39,834 bases of DNA from a virus. Its lineage: Duplodnaviria > Heunggongvirae > Uroviricota > Caudoviricetes. Location: IMG/VR virus record IMGVR_UViG_2563366858_000008. One strand, 5' to 3'. This document shows positions 3,088 through 39,834 of this stretch, piece by piece. The position numbers and the translations under genes were made by a program. Positions within the stretch are counted from its first letter, which is position 1; the number at the start of each line of letters is the position of its first letter. The notes beneath the pieces are model-generated. The model saw nothing but the letters and a program-made list of their open reading frames with translations. It searched no databases and was not told where the DNA came from.

Positions 3088-3190
3088 AAAGACCACCGTT
3101 TAATGTGCATGAAGCCCCACTTAGTTAGTGAAATAACACACATATTAAACCATATATGAATCACATTTAAACGGATAACTCTTCACGAAA

Positions 3191-3205
3191 TTACCCTATA
3201 GGTGA
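3191..3205. promoter_or_regulatory. Operator-like inverted repeat TTACCCTATAGGTGA (1 mismatch to TTACC-N5-GGTAA) upstream of the acetyltransferase gene
   Basis: 37 bp upstream of ATG 3242 in AT-rich promoter region. Confidence 0.4.
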
Positions 3206-3241
3206 TATCATTGGGTTATCCTATTCAAAACGATAGCAATT

Positions 3242-5182
3242 ATGTCTTATTTAAAATACAGAACAGATATTGATGGGCTGCGAGCTATTGCGGTTTTGCT
3301 GGTCGTGCTGTACCACGCAAACTTTCCTATTCATGGTGGTTTTATTGGTGTAGATGTTTTTTTCGTCATATCAGGATATCTCATTACCAACATCATATAT
3401 AAAGAGACTAAAAGAAATATTTTTTCATTCCTTAATTTTTACAAACGTCGAATAAAGCGATTGCTCCCAGCTTTTGCTTTTCTTCTTTTATTTTTATTTG
3501 TTTACTGCAAATTATATTTGATGCCAGATGAACTTATATCATTCTCTAAAAGTGCGGTATACGCTCTTCTTGGCATAAGCAATTTCTATTTTTTTAGTGG
3601 CACAGGTTACTTTAACTCAACCTCTTATGAACCGCTTTTACACACATGGTCGCTTTCCGTTGAAGAGCAGTTCTACATTGTATGGCCTTTCATCGTTTTC
3701 ATGCTCGCTCGGAACTCAGGGACAAAAAAAGCAATAATAATATCCTCATTACTATTTATTGTATTCCTTGGTATTTCACAGTATGGAGCAGTTAATTATA
3801 AAACAGCAGCGTATCTCCTACTGCCTTTTAGGTTCTTTGAGTTGCTCTCAGGTGCCCTACTTGCTATCTATAAAGATTCAATAACAAAACATCTGCGCCA
3901 CGGTTCTGTAATTTCACTGGTCGGCGTAATGCTGATTGTGTTGAGTTCATTATTTATAAATTCTAACACGCCATTTCCTGGGTTCACTGTTTTGCCTACA
4001 TGTTTAGGCGCTGTAATGCTTATTGCTGCAGGTGACTCATCCAAAAACTTCATTTCTAAAGTGCTGTCTTTAACTCCAGTTGTTTATGTAGGAAGAATTT
4101 CCTACTCTCTTTATTTATGGCACTGGCCTGTACTGATTCTTGCTGAATACAGGGGGATCGATCTTACGGCCTTAAATGCGACGGCGCTCATACTTATCGC
4201 ATTCATCATGGCAAGCATAAGCTATCACTTCGTTGAAAAGCCATTTAGGAAGGATTCGCTGCAATATTTCAGGACTGCATTTATAACCATCTACCTGATA
4301 CCATTAATAGTATCCGCTGCCTATGCAGCGTACATTTTAAAAAATGATGGTTTTCGCGCCAAAAGTTCAGAGTTAGTATCTGAATTAGAAGAGAGAAACG
4401 CGACAAATATTATGCGCCCACAGTGTATTGATAAATTATTTATCGGTAATGTAAATGACTGTCATCTTGGCGTTAATAAAGGCGAAGTAGATGGCGTGCT
4501 TCTTGGTGACTCCTTTGGTAATGCATATGCTTACTTTATTGATGAACTTGCGAAAGATGCTGGAATATCAATAACAGATACTACATATAGCTCAACACCT
4601 GTAATATCAGGAATTTATGTGCAGGATATCAGGAATAAGATATCTGACATAGATGCTAACCTGATAATGACATATACAAAAAACAGGCTGGAGTATGCAG
4701 CAAAACAAAAGTTCGCGATAATTTCCGTTTTTTGGGATCAGTACGGGCCACAAAATAATTACTTCCGTATCTTCGATAAAAACGGTGACGTATCGGAGAA
4801 TGCTTACCAGTTGCAATCTGAAGCAATAAAATATCTGCTGTCCAATGGCGTGAAAGTTTACATCATTGCAAGACCTTACCAGTCTATTGGCCCTGCTGCG
4901 ATAAACAAACTGCGCCAAATTAAGCTGCGGCATGGGGATGTAACTACTGAAAAATATGAATACGGCGTAAAGAAAGATGATCGGATAGAATACAAGTTAA
5001 AGCAGGAGTTCCCTCAGATAACGCTAATCGATCCTAACGATGTACTTTGCCACAAAGGGGAATGTGATGCCATCGTGGATGGAAAGATCATTTTCAGAAC
5101 TGATGGTTCACACCTGAATGCTGTTGGAGCAAAAAAAATCGGGGAAGAGTATTTGAAAAACTACGCAAACCCATTTCGATAA
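3242..5182 (+). CDS. O-antigen O-acetyltransferase, acyltransferase-3 membrane domain plus SGNH domain (OafA/Oac-like); lysogenic conversion
   Basis: N-terminal multi-TM domain with conserved YRxDIDGLRAIAV...H motif; C-terminal GDSFG (SGNH) motif; 646 aa; AT-rich relative to neighbours. Confidence 0.85.
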   Translation: MSYLKYRTDIDGLRAIAVLLVVLYHANFPIHGGFIGVDVFFVISGYLITNIIYKETKRNIFSFLNFYKRRIKRLLPAFAFLLLFLFVYCKLYLMPDELISFSKSAVYALLGISNFYFFSGTGYFNSTSYEPLLHTWSLSVEEQFYIVWPFIVFMLARNSGTKKAIIISSLLFIVFLGISQYGAVNYKTAAYLLLPFRFFELLSGALLAIYKDSITKHLRHGSVISLVGVMLIVLSSLFINSNTPFPGFTVLPTCLGAVMLIAAGDSSKNFISKVLSLTPVVYVGRISYSLYLWHWPVLILAEYRGIDLTALNATALILIAFIMASISYHFVEKPFRKDSLQYFRTAFITIYLIPLIVSAAYAAYILKNDGFRAKSSELVSELEERNATNIMRPQCIDKLFIGNVNDCHLGVNKGEVDGVLLGDSFGNAYAYFIDELAKDAGISITDTTYSSTPVISGIYVQDIRNKISDIDANLIMTYTKNRLEYAAKQKFAIISVFWDQYGPQNNYFRIFDKNGDVSENAYQLQSEAIKYLLSNGVKVYIIARPYQSIGPAAINKLRQIKLRHGDVTTEKYEYGVKKDDRIEYKLKQEFPQITLIDPNDVLCHKGECDAIVDGKIIFRTDGSHLNAVGAKKIGEEYLKNYANPFR

Positions 5183-5212: not shown

Positions 5213-7444
5213 TTAAGACTTCTTAAGGTACGACCATGTAACAGTGGTCGTACCGCTGCTGGTAATAGATATATACCTTTCTGATACGCTTGCTGTGAGG
5301 AACGCCGCAGTCTTCAGCGTCTGGATCATTGCTGTCGTACCATCATAAATTACCAGGAATGAAATCGCGTAGTTTGCACCTCCGCCAGAAACCCACACGT
5401 TAACATCATAAACTCCCTCAGAGTTTGGCAAAGTAAATAGCACGGACGCTACGTTAGCGTTGACCGATTTAGTACCCTTGTCGGTATAGACCGTGGGCAC
5501 CTGAAGCCCATTGGCATTTTTATTTTCTACATACCCACCAGCAATAACGCCTGACGTGATGCAGTTCGTGTAGTTAACGTTGCCGGTGCTCACAGTAGAG
5601 ATGGTTGGAGTTCCTCCGGCCGGAGCCTGGAACCGGCAGTTATCTGCATCAACCTGCGAGGTTACATCTGTGTGGATGAATGATGGATAGCCGGCCATTC
5701 CTTCAAAAGCGATCGGCGTACCATCGAAGCTATCTTTGCAGTTCAGCATCTTCACGCGAGATCCATTTATCGCGCGGTAAAAATCAACGATACCATTAGA
5801 ACCACCGAAAGATGTTTTCAACTTGTTGCCAGAACCAACTGCCCCGACTATCGAAACGGTTGAATTATCGAATGTCATAAACGCCACCTCAAGTGCTGAG
5901 TTGTTGTTTATAACGTTCGCCTCACCATCAAAACCGGAGATAAGAAATCCGTGACAATTCGAAAGGTAAATAGCAGACTGACCGATAGACTCGTTGGAGT
6001 TTACTGTCATCTTATCTGCTGCGCAGTTCGTCATCTGCCCTGAAAGGAGGTTTGTTAAATACCACGCGCATACACCCCCCATTACATAGCAGGACTCATA
6101 ATGGATCGTCGTGCCGGTGTTTTTGTAGAAACCACCGCGACTGCGACGCACCCATACATGCTCAAGCCTAGACATATAATTTCCAGAGTCGTCATATACT
6201 CCCCACCATGCCCCATCTATATCGACGTTTTTAATCCTTATCAAACCCGGCGATGTCTCACCACCATTTATAAGAATGCCAATTTTACCGTCGTTTGTGG
6301 CAGCATCTGTTGGATAGTCAATTCCATTCTGATCATAGAAAATATATAAATTCTCAATATTTCCTGAAGCAAAAGACTCTCCATAATGGAAGCACGCTTT
6401 ATTTCCAATTACGGAAATAAAAGTCCCTGATCTGTTTATTATGTTATTACACTCACCGTATACAGTTGCAGATGTATTCATCTTAATAGTGTCATTAACA
6501 AAATATGCATTTCCACCTGGAATAAACACATTTCGTCCAGTGTTAATAGCTGCCTGTATTCCTGCGTAGTCAAAAGACTGGGTAAGCGATGTCACAAATG
6601 GATATACCATTTGTGCTGCTGTCAATGTTGAAAACACTTCGCTTAACTGATGAAGTTTTCCATCGCCTGTAGCACCAAAATCTTTTGCACTAATAAAATC
6701 GCTGTTTTTATCATGCTGTGTACGAATAAATGAACTAATGAAAGGTTGCTTCACCGAGATCAGAGCATCGCCTTTCCCGTCCTCGCCGCTGGCCAACTGG
6801 TTGAATACATCAGCCGCCGTTCCTGAAGGCACAGGGAACGGAACGGGCTTACCGTTGGCGATGCCGATTATGCTTCCTTCAAGTTGAGCGAGAGGTGGCA
6901 GCGGATCGATATAAGAATCAGGAACACGGATTGTATGGTCGATATTCGATAAAACCGTACTGTCCACATAATTCTTTGTGGATGCATCCTGCGGGTTTAC
7001 CGGGTCTTTCAGGTTTCGAATATAGTTGTTCAGCGCGTTATAATAATTTGCCACGAATGACGGCTTGCGCAGCGCCAAGCTAAACCAACTTCGAACCTGC
7101 TGGATCAGCATCGTTAGCTTATCAAAAGCATCCTCATGCACTTCTGCAAAGAACTTCCCCTGATTACGCAAATCAGTTTCCTGCGTAACCGGGAGCTCTC
7201 GTGATATAGAAATCTGGTAACCGTTAGCTAACGCCTTCGACAGAATTACATTACCGCCGTTATATCCACCAGCCCCAGTGACAGTGTAATCAGTATCAAG
7301 AGCCAGCACAGCGATATTTTCGTCAAGGTCAACCACCTGCACTACCAGATCAGATTCCTTGAAAACCCTAAAGGTATAAGGGAATGAAGTCGTAACGCCA
7401 TTGCCTGTGTATTCGTTGTGGTCAACTTCGGTTGAGACCGTCAT
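5213..7444 (-). CDS. Tailspike protein
   Basis: 743 aa; N-terminal MTVSTEVDHNEYTGNGVTTSFPYTF resembles the particle-binding domain of epsilon15-type tailspikes (recalled); central region has beta-helix-like repeats; GGAG RBS. Confidence 0.75.
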   Translation of the reverse strand: MTVSTEVDHNEYTGNGVTTSFPYTFRVFKESDLVVQVVDLDENIAVLALDTDYTVTGAGGYNGGNVILSKALANGYQISISRELPVTQETDLRNQGKFFAEVHEDAFDKLTMLIQQVRSWFSLALRKPSFVANYYNALNNYIRNLKDPVNPQDASTKNYVDSTVLSNIDHTIRVPDSYIDPLPPLAQLEGSIIGIANGKPVPFPVPSGTAADVFNQLASGEDGKGDALISVKQPFISSFIRTQHDKNSDFISAKDFGATGDGKLHQLSEVFSTLTAAQMVYPFVTSLTQSFDYAGIQAAINTGRNVFIPGGNAYFVNDTIKMNTSATVYGECNNIINRSGTFISVIGNKACFHYGESFASGNIENLYIFYDQNGIDYPTDAATNDGKIGILINGGETSPGLIRIKNVDIDGAWWGVYDDSGNYMSRLEHVWVRRSRGGFYKNTGTTIHYESCYVMGGVCAWYLTNLLSGQMTNCAADKMTVNSNESIGQSAIYLSNCHGFLISGFDGEANVINNNSALEVAFMTFDNSTVSIVGAVGSGNKLKTSFGGSNGIVDFYRAINGSRVKMLNCKDSFDGTPIAFEGMAGYPSFIHTDVTSQVDADNCRFQAPAGGTPTISTVSTGNVNYTNCITSGVIAGGYVENKNANGLQVPTVYTDKGTKSVNANVASVLFTLPNSEGVYDVNVWVSGGGANYAISFLVIYDGTTAMIQTLKTAAFLTASVSERYISITSSGTTTVTWSYLKKS

Positions 7445-7600
7445 GTTAAATCTCCAGATAGTCGCAGCACCCGTTGCGCCGCATATCTGGTTATTCTATT
7501 ACCTGAAAAACCATATATGGATGGAAAGAGTGTTAATGTGAGCAGATATTACCTTTCAGGTGATTCGCAAAACGTGCTGGATAGCAAACAAATTATCTGC

Positions 7601-7620
7601 TACTGTATAAATATACAGTT
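7601..7620 (+). promoter_or_regulatory. LexA (SOS) box
   Basis: TACTGTATAAATATACAGTT matches CTGT-(A/T)8-ACAG; lies 20 bp upstream of the moron start codon. Confidence 0.75.
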
Positions 7621-7639
7621 ATTGCATGGAGAAGATAAG

Positions 7640-7897
7640 ATGCAGCAGTATCACTATCCACTGAAAGAGGGATTTACCGAAAGGATTCACACGCCGGGAG
7701 GCGTCAGGTCACTGGTGGAAGGATCGCACTTGATGAAATTACTCCGGGATCTCGATAAGGATGGATTTAATGTCGATGGCCCACTTGCCGAACTGACTGC
7801 ACTGATTAACTACGTCACCAGCTCACAGATGTCTATGCAGGATCTGCAAACACATCTCGACTATTGTGCCGAACAATTACGAAAACAAACCCGGTAA
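7640..7897 (+). CDS. Small SOS-regulated moron protein, unknown function (candidate antirepressor)
   Basis: GGAGAAG RBS 5 nt before ATG 7640; 85 aa; the track's longer ORF from 7517 would contain the LexA box. Confidence 0.6.
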   Translation: MQQYHYPLKEGFTERIHTPGGVRSLVEGSHLMKLLRDLDKDGFNVDGPLAELTALINYVTSSQMSMQDLQTHLDYCAEQLRKQTR

Positions 7898-7904
7898 ATT
7901 TAAA

Positions 7905-7920
7905 GGCCGCGAAAGCGGCC
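7905..7920 (-). terminator. Intrinsic terminator after the lipoprotein gene
   Basis: GGCCGC-gaaa-GCGGCC hairpin; on the minus strand followed by TTTAAATTT. Confidence 0.6.
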
Positions 7921-7921
7921 T

Positions 7922-7933
7922 GTGACATGTCAC
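7922..7933. repeat. 12-bp perfect palindrome GTGACATGTCAC, copy 1
   Basis: Between lipoprotein stop (7937) and terminator hairpin. Confidence 0.8.
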
Positions 7934-7936
7934 GAC

Positions 7937-8350
7937 TTATAAAGATGACTGATATTTTACAACTCTGTTCATGGCATCTTTTTTCACCGAGCTGATATCA
8001 GTTCTTATTTTGGCTTCGTCATTACTGTTTATCATGCTATTAACTTTTTGCACAGACATGCCGTTTCTTTCAGCCATTGCACATACAGCAGCATCGTATG
8101 AAGAACTCGCTGCGATGGATATAACCTTGTTACACTCAAACACAGCACCTTCAGCAATATCAGATGCCGATGATGCTGACTTGGTATAAGTCTTGACGTA
8201 GTGATCAATACAACTATCCTTCGCCGTCTTGGCAAGAGAAAAATCCATTTTAACCTTGTCGCAATATGCCTTATCAACACCGTCATAAACATCATAGGAT
8301 GTCGAGCAAGCGGATATCAAAAATACCGATAACAGCAATAATTCCTTCAT
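7937..8350 (-). CDS. Lipoprotein moron (possible superinfection exclusion)
   Basis: Signal peptide with lipobox ISAC; 137 aa; AT-rich; between ejection-protein genes and tailspike. Confidence 0.6.
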   Translation of the reverse strand: MKELLLLSVFLISACSTSYDVYDGVDKAYCDKVKMDFSLAKTAKDSCIDHYVKTYTKSASSASDIAEGAVFECNKVISIAASSSYDAAVCAMAERNGMSVQKVNSMINSNDEAKIRTDISSVKKDAMNRVVKYQSSL

Positions 8351-8359
8351 TGTTGTTCC

Positions 8360-10834
8360 TTATTGCGGAGTGACATCCTGAGGTCGCCACCAGTATGTCT
8401 GGTTAAACTCTTTCTTCGAACGTTGCTCCATTTTACGCAAATAGCCTGGTGAAAAATACTCCTGCATCTGGTTAAAGATCATGTGATCGAGAGCCGCCTT
8501 TAAGTACCAGAGATTCGCACCTGGCATCAGACCTTTCCCCAGCTTAACCAGATCACCACCAGTCTGCTCATTCTTCCCTTCCACAGCATTTAACGGTATG
8601 CCCTGAGCAATCTTCACTACGTCATCAACCAGACCAGCTACCGGGCCAAGCATCGACGCCAGCGCGCCGCTTCCGTACCTAGTGTGATCTGACAATAAAA
8701 AGTCACCGTAAAGGCCAAGACCACCACCTTTCAGTAGAGCACCAAGCCAAAATTTAGCAGCATCTTCTCCTGTCATCTCGCGATGATTACGACCAGACGC
8801 AAGGTCGTTAAGTTGCTGAGACAAAGCGCCAAGAATGGTCGTGCTGGCAATAAACGTCGCAATATATGCCGCACGCCCACCAGCAGACGGCATACCCATA
8901 GCGCGTGACCAGTGACGCATAACCACCGAGATAGGGAACGATTTAAACAGGAAAACACTTCTCGTTAATTCACCTTTCCATGTTCCACGCTGAATACCAG
9001 AACCGGTTATCAGTTGCTCACGTGCTCCCGGTGTAATAACAGCCATATCAACTTCTTCAGTTACGGCACCGAGCAGTTTACGCATTGCCTCAAATTTCAC
9101 GCGTTCAGGCTCACCAAGATGTTTAACTGCTGAATCAGGGATACGCATAATGCTTTCCGGTGTCAGCATCGTATTATTACCGTTCCCCCAGTCCTCCTGT
9201 TGCGCCAGCTTCCATACGCTCCAGTCTGTGTCAGTAATCCCTTTGCTTTTCAGGATACGAAAATCAGAGTCATCGAGGCTACGAAGGTCTGGTGTCCGTG
9301 ACACTACTTCTCCCAGGCTTCCCATCATGGTTACGCCATAGGCGCGCTTGTGCGCATCTGACCATGCTGTAAGCCCACTGGCACGCATTACCGCCGTTGC
9401 CGCCCAACGAGACACTGACGGCCCCATATTATCCATCGCCCAGCGGTTAACGCTGCCAAGTAGAGATTCCATCGCCAGACCAGCGCGGCGCGCCCGCGCA
9501 AGTTCTGTACGGTTCGTTGGGTCCATAGCTTCAAGCTGGTTGCGAAATAACTGGTTCATTGGAAGGTTGGTCACCTTCGCAGACAGATACATGGTTCCAA
9601 GATCAGAGAACGATGACAGCAACGCGGATCCGAGTCTGCTGGCAACCAGCCAGTTGCGGATAGTGTCAGACCATCGCGCGATGTGCGGATTCGCTACAGG
9701 CTGTGTCTTTCCGGAAATAAAGTTGTACAGATTCTCTGTGTTGTTCGCCAGCCGCTCGACTTTACCGGTTTTACTCGGGTTAGCTGTTGCCGTTTCTGCC
9801 TTAACCTGATCAAGAAGGGAGCGGAAAACATGATCGGGGTTTGGACCATATGTTTCCACCAGAGCAATATCTTTACTGATACCTTCCAGGTGACCGACCA
9901 TGATTTCCCATAGAGAGCGATCACCATAAAGTTGTTGATATTGGAGATAGGAATCTGCATCTTTGAAATGTATCTGTCGTGATGCATTACCACGGTTAGC
10001 ACGTGCGCCGGAAATTCGCATTCCGGTATCAGTAAGCTTATTCAGCCCACCAGTAGCGATCGTGTTATAAGCCTCTCCAAGAAATGCAGACAACTCGGCA
10101 TCGTTCATCAGTTGTCCATCGGCTCGGGTATAATATTTGCGATCCAGCTTACCTATAACATCGCCAACCCACTTATCCTTTGATACCGCCCCAACCTTTT
10201 CCATAGAATGATGTTGAGGGATCCCCCAGTTTTCGAGATAGCCAATGTCCCCACCAGCATCATTAAACCGGCGGCGCAGCAGCTCTGTAACTTCTCTCCA
10301 CGCCTTAGCACCTTTTCTTGCTTTAGCATTGCCAGTATTTTGCCCCCGCATTTCATATACCAGGTCACGTACGCCCGCTTCATCTTCAAACAGACCAAAA
10401 AAGCGAGGATCAACTGCTTCGAATGCCTCCTGCAATTGACTCAATGCATAATCACGGGTGGCTTTTGTTCTGGATTCAACAGAGAGGAAATTAGATTTAC
10501 CGTCTGCATTAAAAGCTATAGTACGGTTAAGAGCGCCAAGTTTACCATCAGCCCCTTGATAGCTATTGATAAATTTATCCAATCTCTGACGCGCGGCTAT
10601 AGTGAGAGCCACACGACGTTTCTTTAATGCCGCTTCTCGCTGTAATTCTTCAGATGCCAATTGTGCTGCTCGATATAGCCGCTCTGATTCGGAAAGTTGT
10701 CGCCACGACATCGGGTCATCACGAGCAATGGAGCGCATATTTCGATAAATGCGGTCTTCAATGTTCTGTATTTCTCGCGCCGTTAACGTGCGCTGCGCCG
10801 CCTGCTGGACCGCTTGTATACATTCCTGTCTCAT
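8360..10834 (-). CDS. Large internal virion / DNA-ejection protein
   Basis: 824 aa; last of a block of large co-directional genes between head and tailspike, as in T7/epsilon15-type podoviruses. Confidence 0.5.
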   Translation of the reverse strand: MRQECIQAVQQAAQRTLTAREIQNIEDRIYRNMRSIARDDPMSWRQLSESERLYRAAQLASEELQREAALKKRRVALTIAARQRLDKFINSYQGADGKLGALNRTIAFNADGKSNFLSVESRTKATRDYALSQLQEAFEAVDPRFFGLFEDEAGVRDLVYEMRGQNTGNAKARKGAKAWREVTELLRRRFNDAGGDIGYLENWGIPQHHSMEKVGAVSKDKWVGDVIGKLDRKYYTRADGQLMNDAELSAFLGEAYNTIATGGLNKLTDTGMRISGARANRGNASRQIHFKDADSYLQYQQLYGDRSLWEIMVGHLEGISKDIALVETYGPNPDHVFRSLLDQVKAETATANPSKTGKVERLANNTENLYNFISGKTQPVANPHIARWSDTIRNWLVASRLGSALLSSFSDLGTMYLSAKVTNLPMNQLFRNQLEAMDPTNRTELARARRAGLAMESLLGSVNRWAMDNMGPSVSRWAATAVMRASGLTAWSDAHKRAYGVTMMGSLGEVVSRTPDLRSLDDSDFRILKSKGITDTDWSVWKLAQQEDWGNGNNTMLTPESIMRIPDSAVKHLGEPERVKFEAMRKLLGAVTEEVDMAVITPGAREQLITGSGIQRGTWKGELTRSVFLFKSFPISVVMRHWSRAMGMPSAGGRAAYIATFIASTTILGALSQQLNDLASGRNHREMTGEDAAKFWLGALLKGGGLGLYGDFLLSDHTRYGSGALASMLGPVAGLVDDVVKIAQGIPLNAVEGKNEQTGGDLVKLGKGLMPGANLWYLKAALDHMIFNQMQEYFSPGYLRKMEQRSKKEFNQTYWWRPQDVTPQ

Positions 10835-20416: not shown

Positions 20417-20436
20417 GTGGGTCTGTTACGACCCAC
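20417..20436 (-). other. Stem-loop after the major capsid gene
   Basis: GTGGGTC-tgttac-GACCCAC, no U-tract; between capsid stop and next RBS. Confidence 0.35.
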
Positions 20437-24419: not shown

Positions 24420-24435
24420 TTTAACGCACAAATTA

Positions 24436-24450
24436 TTACCTTTAAGGTAA
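24436..24450. promoter_or_regulatory. Operator-like inverted repeat TTACCTTTAAGGTAA (perfect)
   Basis: Perfect TTACC-N5-GGTAA in the noncoding region upstream of the tRNA. Confidence 0.6.
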
Positions 24451-24772
24451 CCAAAGAGTTCATTCCGGTTACTAACCTGACTGGCTTGTCGTTAAATTGA
24501 ACAGGTGGAGTGAGCTTTTATTTTGAGCAGTACGGCGTATGGCACATGCGCCGATAGCGGTCTGGATACGTTTAAGGGGCACCCTCCCTTGCTCGGGCAA
24601 ACGAACCAGGTAGCCGGAATGTGCAAGTCGAGCGGTTTTATTCCGCGCACGGGGATTCACCATCCCGGCGATTCGGTGTGACGCCTCGGAAGAGACGAGG
24701 GTACAACGATGAGAGCATTTATGGAGCCGCGACAAAGTGTGGTGCCTTAACAGGCTAAGTGCTCTCAGCGTT

Positions 24773-24849
24773 GTGGCATTAGCTCAGTTGGACAGAGCAA
24801 CCGCCTTCTAAGCGGTTGGTCGCAGGTTCGAATCCTGCATGCCACGCCA
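24773..24849 (+). tRNA. tRNA-Arg (anticodon UCU), phage-encoded
   Basis: Full cloverleaf: acceptor GTGGCAT/ATGCCAC, D-arm GCTC/GAGC, anticodon stem ACCGC/GCGGT with loop CTTCTAA, T-arm GCAGG-TTCGAAT-CCTGC, discriminator G and encoded CCA. Confidence 0.95.
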
Positions 24850-24934: not shown

Positions 24935-25012
24935 ACAGCAGGACGCCATTGCGATGACTTCATGCTGTAAACCAGTACAGCCACGGAAGGCATAACTCAT
25001 TGCTTCCAGTTC

Positions 25013-26990: not shown

Positions 26991-27583
26991 TGATTGCCAT
27001 CCTGACGTTCTTTCAGTCTCTTCCTGGCTGCCGCTATGCGATCAGCAATTGTCACATTCACATTAACATCCAGGCGTTCTTTGAACGCGTTGACATCAAC
27101 ATGCTTACCAATCAGCTCAAGGTTCTTCACCTTGTCAGGCCATTTAATTTTTTTGAGGATTGTCTCTATCGAATCCTCGTTCATGTTCATGATGGTCGAT
27201 GACAGATCAAAGCCACTAAGCGTAGTGCGCCAGATTTTCGGCCACTCACGGATTGGTTTAAGGCTCCCATCGTCGTTGAGGATATCGATCACGTCCATCT
27301 GGTCGATCTCCACCAGGCGCATGAGAACGTAATCAGCACTGACGCGCATTCGTTTGTTGCGCTCCTCCATCAACTCGGCAATCCGTTTTTGAATGCGTAC
27401 ATCGCGCATCATGACACTGGCTTTAACTGCCGCTGTATTTGGGGAGAACCCTGCGTTAATCGCTGCCTGAGTCTGGTTTTCAGGCGTTTTGATGTATGAC
27501 TGGCAATAAGCCTCCTGCATTGCTGTGAGCGGCTTAAATTGCGTTGATTTGCGTTTATAGGTTTTAGGTTCAGCAGGCATCAT
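26987..27583 (-). CDS. Terminase small subunit
   Basis: Start MMPAEPK at ATG 27583 (the track's N-terminal extension to 27661 crosses a terminator and operator repeats); motif QEAYCQSYIKT...AAINAGFS typical of small subunits. Confidence 0.75.
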   Translation of the reverse strand: MMPAEPKTYKRKSTQFKPLTAMQEAYCQSYIKTPENQTQAAINAGFSPNTAAVKASVMMRDVRIQKRIAELMEERNKRMRVSADYVLMRLVEIDQMDVIDILNDDGSLKPIREWPKIWRTTLSGFDLSSTIMNMNEDSIETILKKIKWPDKVKNLELIGKHVDVNAFKERLDVNVNVTIADRIAAARKRLKERQDGNQ

Positions 27584-27597
27584 AACCACCGTGGTAA
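27583..27597. promoter_or_regulatory. Operator-like repeat TAACCACCGTGGTAA (1 mismatch), overlapping terS start
   Basis: Adjacent to the perfect copy at 27601; 18 bp centre-to-centre. Confidence 0.45.
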
Positions 27598-27600
27598 TAG

Positions 27601-27615
27601 TTACCGTTGTGGTAA
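27601..27615. promoter_or_regulatory. Operator-like inverted repeat TTACCGTTGTGGTAA (perfect)
   Basis: Between the late-leader terminator and the terS start codon. Confidence 0.6.
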
Positions 27616-27622
27616 TAGTACC

Positions 27623-28226: not shown

Positions 28227-28311
28227 TACCATATCCACCCAATTTCACCAGACATAATTCTCGCAATCACTATCATAACCAAAGTGATAATCACAACTTT
28301 AACTGGCGGCA

Positions 28312-31428: not shown

Positions 31429-31431
31429 GAT

Positions 31432-31446
31432 TTACCTCTAAGGTAA
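31432..31446. promoter_or_regulatory. Operator-like inverted repeat TTACCTCTAAGGTAA (perfect)
   Basis: Overlaps RBS/leader of the 31084..31428 gene. Confidence 0.6.
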
Positions 31447-31474
31447 TTAAAAACCACATAAGACACGAAATCAA
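31446..31474 (-). promoter_or_regulatory. Candidate sigma70 promoter for the nin-like operon
   Basis: Minus strand TTGATT, 17-bp spacer, TTTAAT; flanked by operator-like repeats at 31432 and 31494. Confidence 0.4.
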
Positions 31475-31493
31475 TAGAGCTTAGAATATTTTA

Positions 31494-31508
31494 TTACCCG
31501 ACAGGTAA
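31494..31508. promoter_or_regulatory. Operator-like inverted repeat TTACCCGACAGGTAA (perfect)
   Basis: Just downstream (minus strand) of the terminator-like hairpin after the P-like gene. Confidence 0.6.
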
Positions 31509-31520
31509 TTGTTGAGACGT

Positions 31521-31545: not shown

Positions 31546-32331
31546 TTACTTGATAAATCCTGACGCCTTTCCCCGCCTGTATTCCTCCATCAGCCACTGC
31601 GCCGGTGTTATTCCCCCCAGGGTGGCGGCGTTAGGCATGCACCCGAAACTTCGCCCTGGCGGGTGGTAAACGTCTCTCCCTGTGTCCGGAGGCGTACTCA
31701 TGGGTTCTGGCTTTGCCTGTATGCTGATCACCGGATCGGGTATCTGCTGCCCGGAAGCCACCTTTTTCGCCCAATCATCGAGCAGCCTGCGCGCGTGTTT
31801 CTCAACCTCAATCTCGCTAAGCTGGCGCTGATACATTGCACGGCGGGTATCACATACGACCCAGTACATAACCGGATGCCGCCACGGGAATCTTTCGGGA
31901 CCACCAGGATATAAACTTTTTTCCTTGCTGTACCGGTGAAACTCCGCCATCACATCGTCAATGGTGACGCCAAGAACCATCTTGCTGTCTTTACACCACT
32001 TGATAAATTGCCCTGGCGACGGCCAGAACGGAGATTCACTGGCGCGGGCGTGGCGCATACCAGCAGAAACCTGTTCACGGGTTCGGATCCCCCCTTCGGC
32101 AAACGCAGCAATCCACTGCTGTTTTGCAGCAACTTCCTGCTCTGGCGTCTTCAGGTTGGTTACTACTGCCGCCGGAAACAGTTGTTTCAGCTGTTTGAAA
32201 AGGGCATCAACAAGCCTCTCTGCTGACATGTTCACCACATTGTCATTGTTGACGTACTGATGCTCATAACCTGACATGCGAGAAAGGGCTTCTCCGTCAC
32301 GGTTTTGTATCGCGGTAAAAACGTTGTTCAC
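31546..32331 (-). CDS. Replication protein P-like (helicase loader)
   Basis: Segment FPAAVVTNL...WIAAFAEGGIRTREQVSAGMRHARASESPFWPSPGQFIKWCK aligns with lambda P (recalled); GGAGGA RBS before GTG 32331, overlapping the O-like stop (GTGA). Confidence 0.8.
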   Translation of the reverse strand: MNNVFTAIQNRDGEALSRMSGYEHQYVNNDNVVNMSAERLVDALFKQLKQLFPAAVVTNLKTPEQEVAAKQQWIAAFAEGGIRTREQVSAGMRHARASESPFWPSPGQFIKWCKDSKMVLGVTIDDVMAEFHRYSKEKSLYPGGPERFPWRHPVMYWVVCDTRRAMYQRQLSEIEVEKHARRLLDDWAKKVASGQQIPDPVISIQAKPEPMSTPPDTGRDVYHPPGRSFGCMPNAATLGGITPAQWLMEEYRRGKASGFIK

Positions 32332-33167
32332 AAGAAATCCTCCCACGCTTCAGGGCTGTTCCAGTGCGGAACGTTGTTATCAGGTAATGTTGATTGCTTC
32401 TGTCTGCTAATCTGCAGCCGCCTTCCCAGCTTCTGCTCCCACTGTGCCTGATGGTATGCCTTACCCTCAGCCATCCAGTAAATTCTGAACTCTGCAAGTT
32501 CCTGTGCCGTTGGCAGACTGTCCAGGTAGATCCCCTGCAATGAGCTTTTCCGAAGAAAGTCATCTGATGGTTGCCATTGTTCATGCATGACAAATTTGCC
32601 TAATTGCCCTGGCCCACCAGGAGGAACAAAGTTATTCATCACGGCGTTGTTTGCGCCGGGGTCATGAGGCACAGAATCCCCGGTTTTTGTCCTGCTCTCC
32701 CTCTCTTGGTTAAATGACTGGTTATATGACTGGTTCTGGATCCCGTTTTTGGGATCATTCAACATCCCGTTTTTGGGATCATTCAACATCCCGTTTTTGG
32801 GATCATTCAACATCCCGTTTTTGGGTATATTCCCGTTTTCGGGAACATTACCGTTTTCGGGTTCATTACGTCCTTCTAGGTTGCCTTTAATGTTCCCTTT
32901 TTTGGTTATATTAAGAGAGAAAACCCGCACTCTTTTCGTCGCTCCCTTTCTCTCTCCGGTATCTGAAATAAGCCCCATTTTCATGAGCGATATAAGCCCG
33001 GCCTGCACGGTTTTTTTATTCAGGCAAGTGTCTTTAACGAGGCGTTCTATGCTGGGGTAGCAGAGGTTATATTCATCGGCTCTGTCAGCCATCGAGAGCA
33101 GTATGAGCTTTAATGACGAGCTACCTGGATCTGTCTCCCAGGCCCAATCTGTTGCATGTCTGCTCAT
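32328..33167 (-). CDS. Replication initiator O-like, with internal origin iterons
   Basis: N-terminal helix-turn-helix-like region; central NGMLNDPK x3 repeat encoded by DNA iterons; directly upstream of P-like gene. Confidence 0.7.
   Translation of the reverse strand: MSRHATDWAWETDPGSSSLKLILLSMADRADEYNLCYPSIERLVKDTCLNKKTVQAGLISLMKMGLISDTGERKGATKRVRVFSLNITKKGNIKGNLEGRNEPENGNVPENGNIPKNGMLNDPKNGMLNDPKNGMLNDPKNGIQNQSYNQSFNQERESRTKTGDSVPHDPGANNAVMNNFVPPGGPGQLGKFVMHEQWQPSDDFLRKSSLQGIYLDSLPTAQELAEFRIYWMAEGKAYHQAQWEQKLGRRLQISRQKQSTLPDNNVPHWNSPEAWEDFL
32741..32866. repeat. Origin-like iteron array inside the O-like gene
   Basis: Three exact 24-bp units TCCCGTTTTTGGGATCATTCAACA (32741, 32765, 32789) then three degenerate 18-bp units, each with a CCCG-T(4-5)-GGG dyad; AT-rich stretch follows. 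Confidence 0.75.
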
Positions 33168-33533: not shown

Positions 33534-33764
33534 TCATGAGTAGAAGAAGTACGCCAGTTCTGCTTTTGAGCGCAGCCATCGTCTTGTTTTACAGGCTTTA
33601 AAAAGCCCATTCATCAATACCTTACCTGGCATTTTGCGCTTACCTGTTAAGTGAGTCTGGATATAGTGACTCGTCGTTCCGGCTTCCTGTGCGAAGGCTT
33701 CACGCTCATCCGGAGTAAGTGCAAGCCAGTGTTTTTTGAAATCGAAATGTCCGTTATCGCTCAT
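33534..33764 (-). CDS. Cro-like small regulator
   Basis: 76 aa; divergent from the repressor gene across the three-site operator region. Confidence 0.5.
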   Translation of the reverse strand: MSDNGHFDFKKHWLALTPDEREAFAQEAGTTSHYIQTHLTGKRKMPGKVLMNGLFKACKTRRWLRSKAELAYFFYS

Positions 33765-33800
33765 AGCTATTGCCTGATATTTATTTCAGATAATAAATAT

Positions 33801-33815
33801 TCACCCATAAGGTAA
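33801..33815. promoter_or_regulatory. Operator site TCACCCATAAGGTAA (1 mismatch)
   Basis: First of three sites in the cro/cI intergenic region. Confidence 0.55.
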
Positions 33816-33831
33816 CAAAAATCAAGGATAG

Positions 33832-33846
33832 TTACCCATGGGGTGC
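33832..33846. promoter_or_regulatory. Operator site TTACCCATGGGGTGC (2 mismatches)
   Basis: Middle site; 17 bp centre-to-centre from the next. Confidence 0.45.
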
Positions 33847-33848
33847 AT

Positions 33849-33863
33849 TTACCTGTTGGGTAA
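33849..33863. promoter_or_regulatory. Operator site TTACCTGTTGGGTAA (perfect)
   Basis: Third site of the tripartite operator. Confidence 0.65.
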
Positions 33864-33918
33864 TATTGCTTTAAATTGAATCATCTACTGATTCATATAT
33901 GAGGCGATTTTCCAGAAA

Positions 33919-34503
33919 ATGAAAAGTATCCAGGACGTCCGCAGGCAAAATCTCAACGACTTGATCGACCGTGAATTCAATGGTGTTCAGACGCGGATGG
34001 CAGAAAAACTTGGAACTCAGGCAAATCTGGTAAACCGCTGGGCTCTTGGCAAGAAGGTTATCGGCGACCAGGTTGCGCGAAAAATTGAAGCTGCCGCCAA
34101 TAAACCCCGTAACTGGCTTGATATCGATCGCTCGCTTTCTCAGGAAGGTTTTCAGCCTGTCGGCCCAAGCGACATTGGTCAGCTGGCGGCTCACAACCTG
34201 GAACGCTGGATGAGCGAAAGCCGCGACCTTTCAACACAGGGAAAACTTCACCGCGCATCCGGCGTCGCCCAGGTGACAATCAGCCGCCTGTTAAACAATG
34301 AGGTCAGCGTTTCCATTTCCACCCTGGAGAATGTTGCATCCGCATTCGGGCGTCACGGCTATGAATTACTGATTCACCCGCACGACCCTGCGACTATCAA
34401 CTATGACCGCTCGCGCTACGCATTGTTACCCGAAACAGAGAAGGCAAAGATCGAAAGTTACATTGAATTTGTCATCAGCCAGAACGAAAAAAACAAACAA
34501 TAA
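33919..34503 (+). CDS. Prophage repressor, tandem HTH (XRE-type), no autocleavage domain (cI-like)
   Basis: Two HTH-like segments (QTRMAEKLGTQANLVNRW and ASGVAQVTISRLL); 194 aa, no room for an S24 peptidase domain; divergent from cro-like gene. Confidence 0.7.
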   Translation: MKSIQDVRRQNLNDLIDREFNGVQTRMAEKLGTQANLVNRWALGKKVIGDQVARKIEAAANKPRNWLDIDRSLSQEGFQPVGPSDIGQLAAHNLERWMSESRDLSTQGKLHRASGVAQVTISRLLNNEVSVSISTLENVASAFGRHGYELLIHPHDPATINYDRSRYALLPETEKAKIESYIEFVISQNEKNKQ

Positions 34504-34550: not shown

Positions 34551-34560
34551 GCCAGCAAGA

Positions 34561-34575
34561 TTACCTTATGGGTAA
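34561..34575. promoter_or_regulatory. Operator site TTACCTTATGGGTAA (perfect)
   Basis: Upstream flank of the early-left promoter. Confidence 0.65.
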
Positions 34576-34594
34576 TTTTTTTAACTCATATCTA

Positions 34595-34622
34595 TTGACA
34601 TCAAACCAGATACGCATAATCA
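34595..34622 (+). promoter_or_regulatory. Early-left promoter (PL-like)
   Basis: TTGACA, 16-bp spacer, TAATCA; bracketed by operator sites at 34561 and 34623. Confidence 0.55.
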
Positions 34623-34637
34623 TTACCTCAACGGTAA
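34623..34637. promoter_or_regulatory. Operator site TTACCTCAACGGTAA (perfect)
   Basis: Immediately after the -10; would cover the transcription start. Confidence 0.65.
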
Positions 34638-34656
34638 CAGACCGAGGTAACAAATT

Positions 34657-38583: not shown

Positions 38584-39834
38584 TTATTCCTCCGCCATCC
38601 ACTTCTCAAACTTCGACGGGGAGAACGGAATCAGATCCGTATGCTCCCCGTTAATCCAGGAATCAATCATATCGGCCCACTGCTGCAACATGTAGGCGCG
38701 CTGTCTGGCGTATTCCGCTTTGTTATATACGGCGCGCACACCTTTCTGCTCATGTGCCAGAGCCTTTTCAATCCAGTCTGAAGGATAACCAGCCTCATGC
38801 AACAACGTACTGGCTGTACGGCGCATATCATGTACAGTGAAGTCCTGAATATGATCACCATCTTCATTTATTATTTTCACCGTTCTGTCGATCAGAGAGT
38901 TCAGCGCGGCATTAGATAATGGCTTCCGGAAATTGTAACGACCAGGAACCAGATATTCACTTCCACCAGCGCACATCTGCAACCCGATTAATATATCCTG
39001 TGCCTGTTTAGGCAGGTAAATAACGTGCGCCCGACTTCCCTTCATGCGGTCTGAAGGAATTGTCCATGTCCATTTTTTAAAATCTATTTCATCCCACGTT
39101 GCATTGGTGAATTCGCCTTTACGAACCATAGTGATAAGCACCAGCTTTAAAGCCATTTTCATAGTGCCCATAGCACCAATGGCATCCAGCGTGCGGAAGA
39201 ACAGACCAATTTCTTCTGGTGTCAGTGTTCGCTCTCGTGGTTTAAATATGGCGATAGACGAAGGTTTAATGTCAGCCGCAGGATTAAACAAACCATGACC
39301 ACGGTCATTGGCGTGACGGTATACGCTGCTGATGATCTCCCTGGCCTGCACTGCTGTTGCCCGACCACCGCGTTCGACAATCCGGTCACACAAATCACGA
39401 ACCATCGATGTGGTAATTTCAGCCATTATTTTGTTGCCAAGAACCGGAAGTATGTCACGGTCGATCACCGCCTGCTTCATTGCGCGGGTACTGTCAGCCA
39501 GGATGACGTGTTTCATATAACTGTCGGTATGTACCGCAAACGTCTCGGCACCACGAATCTTTTTGATACCGTCACGTTTAGCCGCAGCCGGCGACTGGCC
39601 TGCTTTAAGCAGCTTCTTTGCAGCAATCAGTTCTTCTCGCGCTTCTGCCAGGCTGATACCGTCACGCCCATACTGCCCGATTACCAGTGTTTCGCGGCGA
39701 CCGTTGATACGGTAGTCATAGCGAAACGAGACCGTGCCTGACGTAAGCACAGCTACATACAGCCCGTCACGATCGGAGACCTTGTACAGTTTGTCCTGCG
39801 GCTTGAGGTTTTTTAATTTTGTATCGGTAAGCAC
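38584..39834 (-). CDS. int: Tyrosine integrase, P4-like; start at window edge
   Basis: N-terminal LTDTKLKNLKP...YKVSDRDGLYVAV arm-binding-like domain; C-terminal HDMRRT and VYNKAEY catalytic Tyr region; GTG at 39832..39834, upstream context not visible. Confidence 0.9.
   Translation of the reverse strand: MLTDTKLKNLKPQDKLYKVSDRDGLYVAVLTSGTVSFRYDYRINGRRETLVIGQYGRDGISLAEAREELIAAKKLLKAGQSPAAAKRDGIKKIRGAETFAVHTDSYMKHVILADSTRAMKQAVIDRDILPVLGNKIMAEITTSMVRDLCDRIVERGGRATAVQAREIISSVYRHANDRGHGLFNPAADIKPSSIAIFKPRERTLTPEEIGLFFRTLDAIGAMGTMKMALKLVLITMVRKGEFTNATWDEIDFKKWTWTIPSDRMKGSRAHVIYLPKQAQDILIGLQMCAGGSEYLVPGRYNFRKPLSNAALNSLIDRTVKIINEDGDHIQDFTVHDMRRTASTLLHEAGYPSDWIEKALAHEQKGVRAVYNKAEYARQRAYMLQQWADMIDSWINGEHTDLIPFSPSKFEKWMAEE

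Follow-up and report, generated by a model that had tools for sequence, protein, structure and literature searches.

The ant gene, its LexA box, and its putative promoter

The window analyzed here is a stretch of DNA of 39,834 nucleotides (nt), and the locus under study consists of a small gene, ant, which encodes a protein of 85 amino acids (aa), together with a LexA box just upstream of it (Table 1). The box, TACTGTATAAATATACAGTT, has the form CTGT-N8-ACAG with a spacer composed wholly of A and T, and, compared with the 20-mer consensus of the SOS box, TACTGTATATATATACAGTA, it has two mismatches, both at weakly informative positions. No other site in the 39.8-kb window has three or fewer mismatches to this consensus, while 100 shuffles yielded none and the second-best 20-mer in the window has six mismatches; given the base composition, about 8e-5 sites with two or fewer mismatches would be expected by chance. 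The bare 16-mer CTGT-N8-ACAG is much less specific, occurring three times in the window against an expectation of 0.64, which is near chance. Its other two matches, at 20423 and 24965, were dismissed as chance occurrences because their spacers contain G or C; the one at 24965 sits in a 20-mer with eight mismatches to the consensus.

The ant gene lies on the strand opposite to its neighbors, between the tailspike gene and virion genes resembling gp17 and gp18, and far from the immunity region. A self-BLAST of the window found no second copy of the 496-bp ant region. A preliminary description of this DNA had placed a near-consensus SOS box with an all-A/T spacer 20 bp upstream of an 85-aa gene, itself set on the opposite strand between tail genes. 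The quality and uniqueness of the box, its location just upstream, the length of the gene, and its position amid minus-strand tailspike and virion genes were all confirmed; the distance needs a small correction, as the gap is 19 nt and the ATG lies at 7640 rather than 7641. The same description had regarded the gene as a moron. This did not hold up, and ant is no recent insertion either: 10 of 10 relatives, which come from four host genera, have the gene in the same place and with its LexA box, so that ant belongs to the core genes of the genus and occupies a fixed position.

Conservation of the box was assessed in an alignment of ten phages (from Escherichia, Salmonella, Enterobacter, and Klebsiella) that covered the intergenic region between the tailspike gene and ant. 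The half-sites TA-TGT and ATACAGT are invariant in this alignment, unlike the spacer and the 15 nt that precede the box; in the two Klebsiella phages, ATGT replaces CTGT. The distance from the box to the ATG is likewise fixed at 19 nt across the ten relatives (18 nt in the Klebsiella phages), and the box in the window aligns column for column with that of phage SPC32H. A second point of comparison is SPC32N, which differs from SPC32H at only two bases within the 5.4 kb compared. One of these, C to A at position 2632 of the compared locus, turns ACAG into AAAG in the right half of the ant LexA box and, judged from the sequence, destroys that half-site; the other is a G-to-A change near the start of the tailspike gene. 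SPC32N is reportedly the clear-plaque variant on which the discovery made by Kim & Ryu (2013) was based.

The putative ant promoter combines the -35 hexamer TGGATA with the -10 hexamer TACTGT across a 17-nt spacer, and its -10 coincides with the first 6 nt of the LexA box. A generic sigma-70 scan of positions 7400 to 8000 returned no promoter at the scan threshold, so the assignment rests on conservation and on analogy with promoter p95 of coliphage 186. Across the ten aligned phages, CTGGA(T/A)A is invariant and the spacer is not. In the curated phage 186 record, p95, the LexA-controlled promoter of tum, has the LexA box TACTGTATGTTTATACAGTA. The first six bases of that box are the -10 hexamer TACTGT, and tum starts 18 nt past the box, compared with 19 nt for the ant ATG in the window. 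An alternative -10 hexamer, TATAAA (7606 to 7611), also falls within the box; with either one, bound LexA would be expected to occlude the -10/start region.

Downstream of the box, the ribosome-binding site (RBS) GGAGAAG was read from the sequence, and its GGAG core is invariant in the alignment. Past the stop codon, a G+C-rich hairpin separates ant from the convergent minus-strand gene. It resembles a terminator on the minus strand, where it has a T-rich tail (RNA fold of -17.9 kcal/mol; z -3.2), and the epsilon15 record lists its counterpart as a rho-independent terminator. ant is the sole gene between the LexA box and this hairpin.

Table 1. Features of the ant locus, the immunity region, and the integrase gene in the window
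Feature	Position	Strand	Description
Tailspike gene	5213-7444	-	Flanks ant
Rep-operator-type palindrome	7548-7564		ATTACCTTTCAGGTGAT; 53 bp upstream of the LexA box
Putative ant promoter	7578-7606	+	-35 TGGATA (7578-7583), 17-nt spacer, -10 TACTGT (7601-7606)
LexA box	7601-7620		TACTGTATAAATATACAGTT
RBS	7628-7634	+	GGAGAAG
ant	7640-7897	+	85-aa antirepressor, SPC32H_020 ortholog; 85 codons plus stop
Terminator hairpin	7904-7921		G+C-rich; between convergent ant and minus-strand gene
137-aa protein gene	7937-8350	-	Flanks ant on the other side
Virion gene	8360-10834	-	Flanks ant on the other side
Operator cluster	33800-33864		Between rep and the divergent 76-aa gene (33534-33764, -)
rep	33919-34503	+	194-aa prophage repressor; two HTH-type domains, C-terminal oligomerization/Ant-binding region, no S24 domain
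Two operators 62 bp apart	34560-34576, 34622-34638		Flank TTGACA -35 (34595-34600) of early promoter downstream of rep
Integrase gene	38584-39834		Tyrosine integrase, intact, 416 aa; reaches window end exactly

Ant, Rep, and related antirepressor systems

The closest relative of Ant with a known structure was found by a phmmer search of the PDB sequences, in which residues 2 to 84 matched chain E of PDB entry 5D50, an "Anti-repressor protein" of 86 aa (E value of 5.6e-47). Ant is 87% identical to this SPC32H Ant, 84% identical to gp19 of epsilon15, 95 to 96% identical to its orthologs in phiV10 and TL-2011b, and 64 to 76% identical to those of Enterobacter and Klebsiella phages. It belongs to phrog_450, a family of "unknown function" (E value of 1.4e-47), and has a weak link to the antirepressor family phrog_1760 (E value of 4.4e-7). 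Pfam and NCBIfam searches with Ant returned noise only and no family; in Pfam, neither a Bro-N (PF02498) nor an ANT/KilAC domain was detected. At 90% identity, the Ant family forms 136 clusters that come almost entirely from Enterobacteriaceae and related enterobacteria, and the ant region is present in 544 of 5,426 complete E. coli genomes.

The repressor, Rep, is also homologous to a protein of known structure, and the homology spans the whole protein. Residues 1 to 190 match chain A of 5D50, "Repressor" (E value of 4.1e-42), and residues 89 to 190 match chain A of 5D4Z (E value of 4.2e-20). Pfam assigns HTH_3 to residues 106 to 147 and a weak HTH-like match to residues 21 to 61; only HTH families, and no Peptidase_S24 domain, were found at E values of 0.1 or less. 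Since Rep lacks the S24 autoprotease, RecA* cannot inactivate it. Rep shares 99.5% identity with the phiV10 repressor but only about 42% (41.8% in one alignment) with SPC32H Rep. The latter identity varies along the protein: the N-terminal domain reaches 54% and the C-terminal region 49%, as against 32% for the middle HTH and 22% for the linker. In the C-terminal region, 16 of 43 residues are invariant over all Rep types. NLVNRW, presumed to be the recognition segment, is invariant. Ant is therefore far better conserved than Rep between the E. coli and Salmonella systems (87% versus 42%).

These searches bear on two statements of the preliminary description. Its view of 33919 to 34503 as a tandem-HTH repressor without an autocleavage domain is correct, since Pfam finds HTH_3 and a weak N-terminal HTH and no Peptidase_S24, at matching coordinates. 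Its statement that the 85-aa protein has no recognizable relative is right insofar as Ant is not a Tum homolog (BLASTP E value of 0.24) but fails with respect to SPC32H Ant; Pfam and NCBIfam gave nothing meaningful, and it was the PDB sequence search that produced the relative (5D50 chain E).

SPC32H (PDB codes 5D50 and 5D4Z) belongs to the same phage genus as the window, and the two systems agree in detail. Both have orthologous Ant proteins of 85 or 86 aa, a Rep of the same domain layout without S24, and ATTACC-N5-GGTAAT operators. In both, ant lies on the opposite strand beside the tailspike gene, with 19 nt between its LexA box and the ATG; the SPC32H GenBank record annotates ant (SPC32H_020) as "anti-repressor protein" at the syntenic place, on the opposite strand and adjoining the tailspike gene, and annotates rep at the syntenic position as well. 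All four sequence features of an SPC32H-type module are thus present in the window, namely, Ant homology, a Rep without S24, a box at the promoter, and synteny. The systems differ in that the host is E. coli rather than Salmonella, that Rep is a diverged allele, and that the slot after ant holds the gene for a 137-aa lipoprotein rather than the 46-aa membrane protein of SPC32H.

Two further systems invite comparison. Like Ant, Tum of coliphage 186 is a trans-acting antirepressor of a non-cleavable repressor, expressed from a promoter that lies outside the immunity region and has a LexA box over its -10. The p95-like geometry of the ant box reflects a shared mechanism and not membership in one family. 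Homology between Ant and Tum was considered and rejected, as the BLASTP value given above is not significant and Tum falls into phrog_189 (DinI-like) while Ant falls into phrog_450; moreover, Tum has 146 aa and a DinI-like half that Ant lacks, and the phage type and the repressor differ as well. The Gifsy-1, -2, and -3 antirepressors GfoA, GftA, and GfhA are small proteins under direct LexA control, encoded outside the immunity region, that bind uncleaved repressors and remove them from DNA (Lemire et al. 2011, PMC3121763). Compared by description, they differ from Ant in that they are encoded by the second gene of operons led by a dinI homolog, occur in lambdoid siphoviruses, and form A2B2 complexes (PMC3121763), whereas ant in the window is monocistronic and its complex would, by homology, consist of an Ant tetramer and two Rep dimers. 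PHROG and Pfam searches with Ant revealed no link to the Gifsy antirepressors.

Ant-like sequence also occurs within larger proteins. The Bro-N antirepressors of Uetakeviruses include p23 of phiV10 (2266 to 2850 of the compared locus), gp20 of Tyrion (1726 to 2402 of the compared locus), and ORF4 of ZX5. Residues 153 to 223 of Tyrion gp20 are 41% identical to residues 2 to 72 of Ant (E value of 1e-14), and residues 150 to 180 of phiV10 p23 are 48% identical to residues 2 to 32 of Ant. Because the C termini of Bro-N antirepressors contain this Ant-like segment, the small Ant looks, at the sequence level, like a stand-alone form of a repressor-targeting module. The window itself contains no candidate for a Bro-N-type or other antirepressor besides Ant.

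The prophage and its putative Rep operators

The window is a Uetakevirus (epsilon15-like podovirus) prophage that has integrated into an E. coli chromosome, because it combines homology to phiV10 with host genes, an att core, and an intact integrase gene. The first 25 kb are 96 to 98% identical to Escherichia phage phiV10 and its relatives over about 75% of their length, and the ant region is 100% identical to one E. coli chromosome (isolate AF5). Positions 1 to 1071 are the host genes yfgH and yfgI. The att core attgagtgggaatgatt, which is that of phiV10, epsilon15, and ZX5 (PMC9782041), occurs once in the window, at 1163 to 1179 in minus orientation, and homology to phiV10 starts exactly there. 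As the integrase open reading frame (ORF) ends at the end of the window, the second copy of the att core lies outside it. A broken integrase at the ORFs 1290 to 1772 and 1769 to 2629 was considered and rejected, since these encode a DUF2514 protein and a GH19 endolysin.

Several other features of the prophage were recorded. The 137-aa protein encoded next to ant carries a lipoprotein-type signal (MKELLLLSVFLISAC...) and belongs to phrog_8691, with no Pfam or NCBIfam family; it could be lysogenic-conversion or exclusion cargo. In other phages this variable slot after ant holds the gene for the 46-aa membrane protein (SPC32H and phiV10) and also that for the Bro-N antirepressor (phiV10, Tyrion, and ZX5). 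The gene at 3242 to 5182 on the plus strand encodes a 646-aa protein with AT3 and SGNH acyltransferase domains, the O-antigen acetylase (oac) of phiV10 and SPC32H, which acts in serotype conversion, and a Rep-operator-type palindrome (3190 to 3206) lies 36 bp upstream of its start. A prophage tRNA-Arg with anticodon TCT is located at 24773 to 24849 on the plus strand and is annotated in O157 typing phages 9 and 10 as well. Within a 279-aa ORF on the minus strand (32328 to 33167), positions 32740 to 32869 contain perfect tandem repeats, first 3.6 copies of 24 bp and then 3.1 copies of 18 bp, which encode a reiterated NGMLNDPK in a putative replication protein. By analogy with lambdoid phages, these repeats look like iterons of a replication origin located inside the initiator gene.

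The 17-bp palindrome ATTACC-N5-GGTAAT has 13 sites in the window at two or fewer mismatches, against 1.1 expected. The sites are mostly intergenic (3190 to 3206, 7548 to 7564, 24435 to 24451, 27582 to 27616, 28275 to 28291, 31431 to 31509, 33800 to 33864, and 34560 to 34638) and form three pairs, two of which are spaced at exactly 62 bp (31431/31493 and 34560/34622). The cluster next to rep consists of sites at 33800 to 33816 (three mismatches) and 33848 to 33864 (one mismatch), and equivalent clusters are found in SPC32H, epsilon15, Tyrion, and BUCT711. In epsilon15, the sites homologous to the pair downstream of rep are annotated as repressor binding. The over-representation of the palindrome, its mostly intergenic placement, and the epsilon15 annotation suggest that Rep may directly control many promoters across the genome, beyond the immunity region.

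One such palindrome precedes ant. Its distance from the LexA box is fixed at 53 bp in 10 of 10 relatives (52 bp in the Klebsiella phages), and the epsilon15 record labels the equivalent site "repressor; lysogeny." The offset of this palindrome roughly matches that of the upstream operator at the early promoter near rep, and at the ant promoter (Pant) the LexA box occupies the position of the promoter-proximal operator. It is conceivable, if on balance unlikely, that Pant responds not only to LexA but also, through this operator, to Rep. From this site, Rep could contact other operators by bridging or looping, or it could modulate ant or the divergent tailspike promoter. In a limited literature search, we found no description of Rep feedback or of a "lysogen-only" gate at ant.

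The tailspike-ant intergenic region has a second block conserved in the ten relatives (7493 to 7522; TCTATTACC...AACC..ATATG.A). On the minus strand, this block reads TCCATA-N17-TAGAAT in the window and TTCATA-N17-TAGAAT in SPC32H, a candidate tailspike promoter whose -10 abuts a GGTAAT operator half-site.

The proposed SOS switch and its alternatives

The locus is very probably the part of the lysis-lysogeny switch through which this phiV10/epsilon15-like (Uetakevirus) prophage senses the SOS response, in that cleavage of LexA leads to production of Ant, which disables Rep. In the lysogen, host LexA on its box would cover the -10/start region of the ant promoter and keep ant silent, while Rep would hold the early promoters off through its ATTACC-N5-GGTAAT operators. 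Upon DNA damage, RecA*-stimulated cleavage of LexA would allow ant to be transcribed. By homology with SPC32H, an Ant tetramer would then bind the C-terminal oligomerization domain of Rep and convert DNA-binding Rep tetramers into inactive, Ant-bound dimers, so that Rep would leave its operators and the lytic genes would be expressed. For the E. coli pair, we infer LexA binding, the exact promoter, and the binding of Ant to Rep from sequence.

Published accounts of SPC32H describe the corresponding system. There, self-cleavage of LexA allows the antirepressor to be made, and the antirepressor inhibits the repressor through protein-protein contact (PMC7380047, citing Kim & Ryu 2013); Rep binds DNA as a tetramer, and a tetrameric Ant binds two Rep dimers, thereby breaking the tetramer (PMC9638917); and the C-terminal domain of Rep serves both tetramerization and Ant binding (PMC9986798). 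In E. coli, phage ZX5 is inducible by mitomycin C, with titers rising from 1e7 to 1e9 PFU/mL, and the sequence of its repressor is, according to its authors, that of phiV10 (PMC9782041), the near-identical relative of Rep in the window. The preliminary description had proposed a LexA-controlled, trans-acting antirepressor paired with a repressor that cannot cleave itself. That logic is supported, because the homologous and experimentally characterized SPC32H system works in this way and shares with the window its Ant, Rep, box, and gene order. The Ant/LexA mechanism is already known, with a crystal structure of the complex from the same phage genus, and the window reveals no new mechanism. The SPC32H system was published between 2013 and 2016 (Kim & Ryu 2013, J Virol 87:11775; Kim et al. 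2016, PNAS 113:E2480).

Transfer of the Ant-Rep interaction to the window is not guaranteed, since its Rep is only about 42% identical to the crystallized SPC32H Rep. This opens the way to the best of the alternatives, in which Ant is SOS controlled but is not an effective inducer of the E. coli-type Rep, a task performed in phiV10/ZX5-type phages by the Bro-N antirepressor; the Bro-N gene would have been lost here, and the prophage would therefore be poorly or not at all SOS inducible. The disparity between Rep and Ant in their identity to the SPC32H counterparts fits this alternative, as does the presence of a Bro-N antirepressor gene directly after ant in phiV10, Tyrion, and one Klebsiella relative, where the window has the 137-aa lipoprotein gene and no Bro-N homolog. 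In addition, overexpression of the Bro-N protein ORF4 of ZX5 reduced lysogeny (PMC9782041). However, Ant and its LexA box accompany every Rep type, even in phages without Bro-N (SPC32H, epsilon15, PAT1, and BUCT554), and the part of Rep that would contact Ant retains its 16 invariant residues of 43 over all of these types. The Bro-N proteins themselves carry the Ant-like segment at their C termini, a hint that repressor binding resides in the Ant module. We consider this alternative improbable.

It is still less probable that the 85-aa protein is an SOS-induced effector with another target, for instance one directed at the host or acting in exclusion. Its lack of a Pfam or NCBIfam family and the label "hypothetical protein" on nearly all database copies would allow for this, and its much stronger conservation relative to Rep could point to a further conserved partner. 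Against this, a protein 87% identical to it was crystallized together with the homologous repressor, and its sole weak family links are to antirepressors, namely, phrog_1760 and the C termini of the Bro-N proteins. The preliminary description had kept another SOS-induced effector as a fallback, which is very unlikely given this identity to an antirepressor crystallized with Rep. Equally remote is the idea that LexA does not act at the palindrome and that ant is controlled otherwise, e.g., via the conserved Rep-type operator 53 bp upstream, as conservation in phages of four host genera is limited to the half-sites that LexA contacts, only about 8e-5 such sites are expected by chance, the architecture is like that of 186 p95, and SPC32N carries a substitution in this very box.

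Read as an SOS-sensing arm, the ant locus explains how a common type of E. coli prophage with a non-cleavable repressor senses DNA damage. It also exposes a gap in annotation, as Ant goes by the name "hypothetical protein" in RefSeq/PGAP, in the phiV10 record, and in nearly all database entries, and the antirepressor tested experimentally in ZX5 was the Bro-N protein alone, with the small Ant passed over (PMC9782041). Beyond annotation, the remaining value of the locus lies in the question of the conserved Rep operator beside a LexA-controlled promoter. If Pant does respond to Rep, this input would give the switch feedback or a "lysogen-only" gate. Finally, because Ant is conserved far beyond Rep, cross-induction among different Uetakevirus prophages would be possible.
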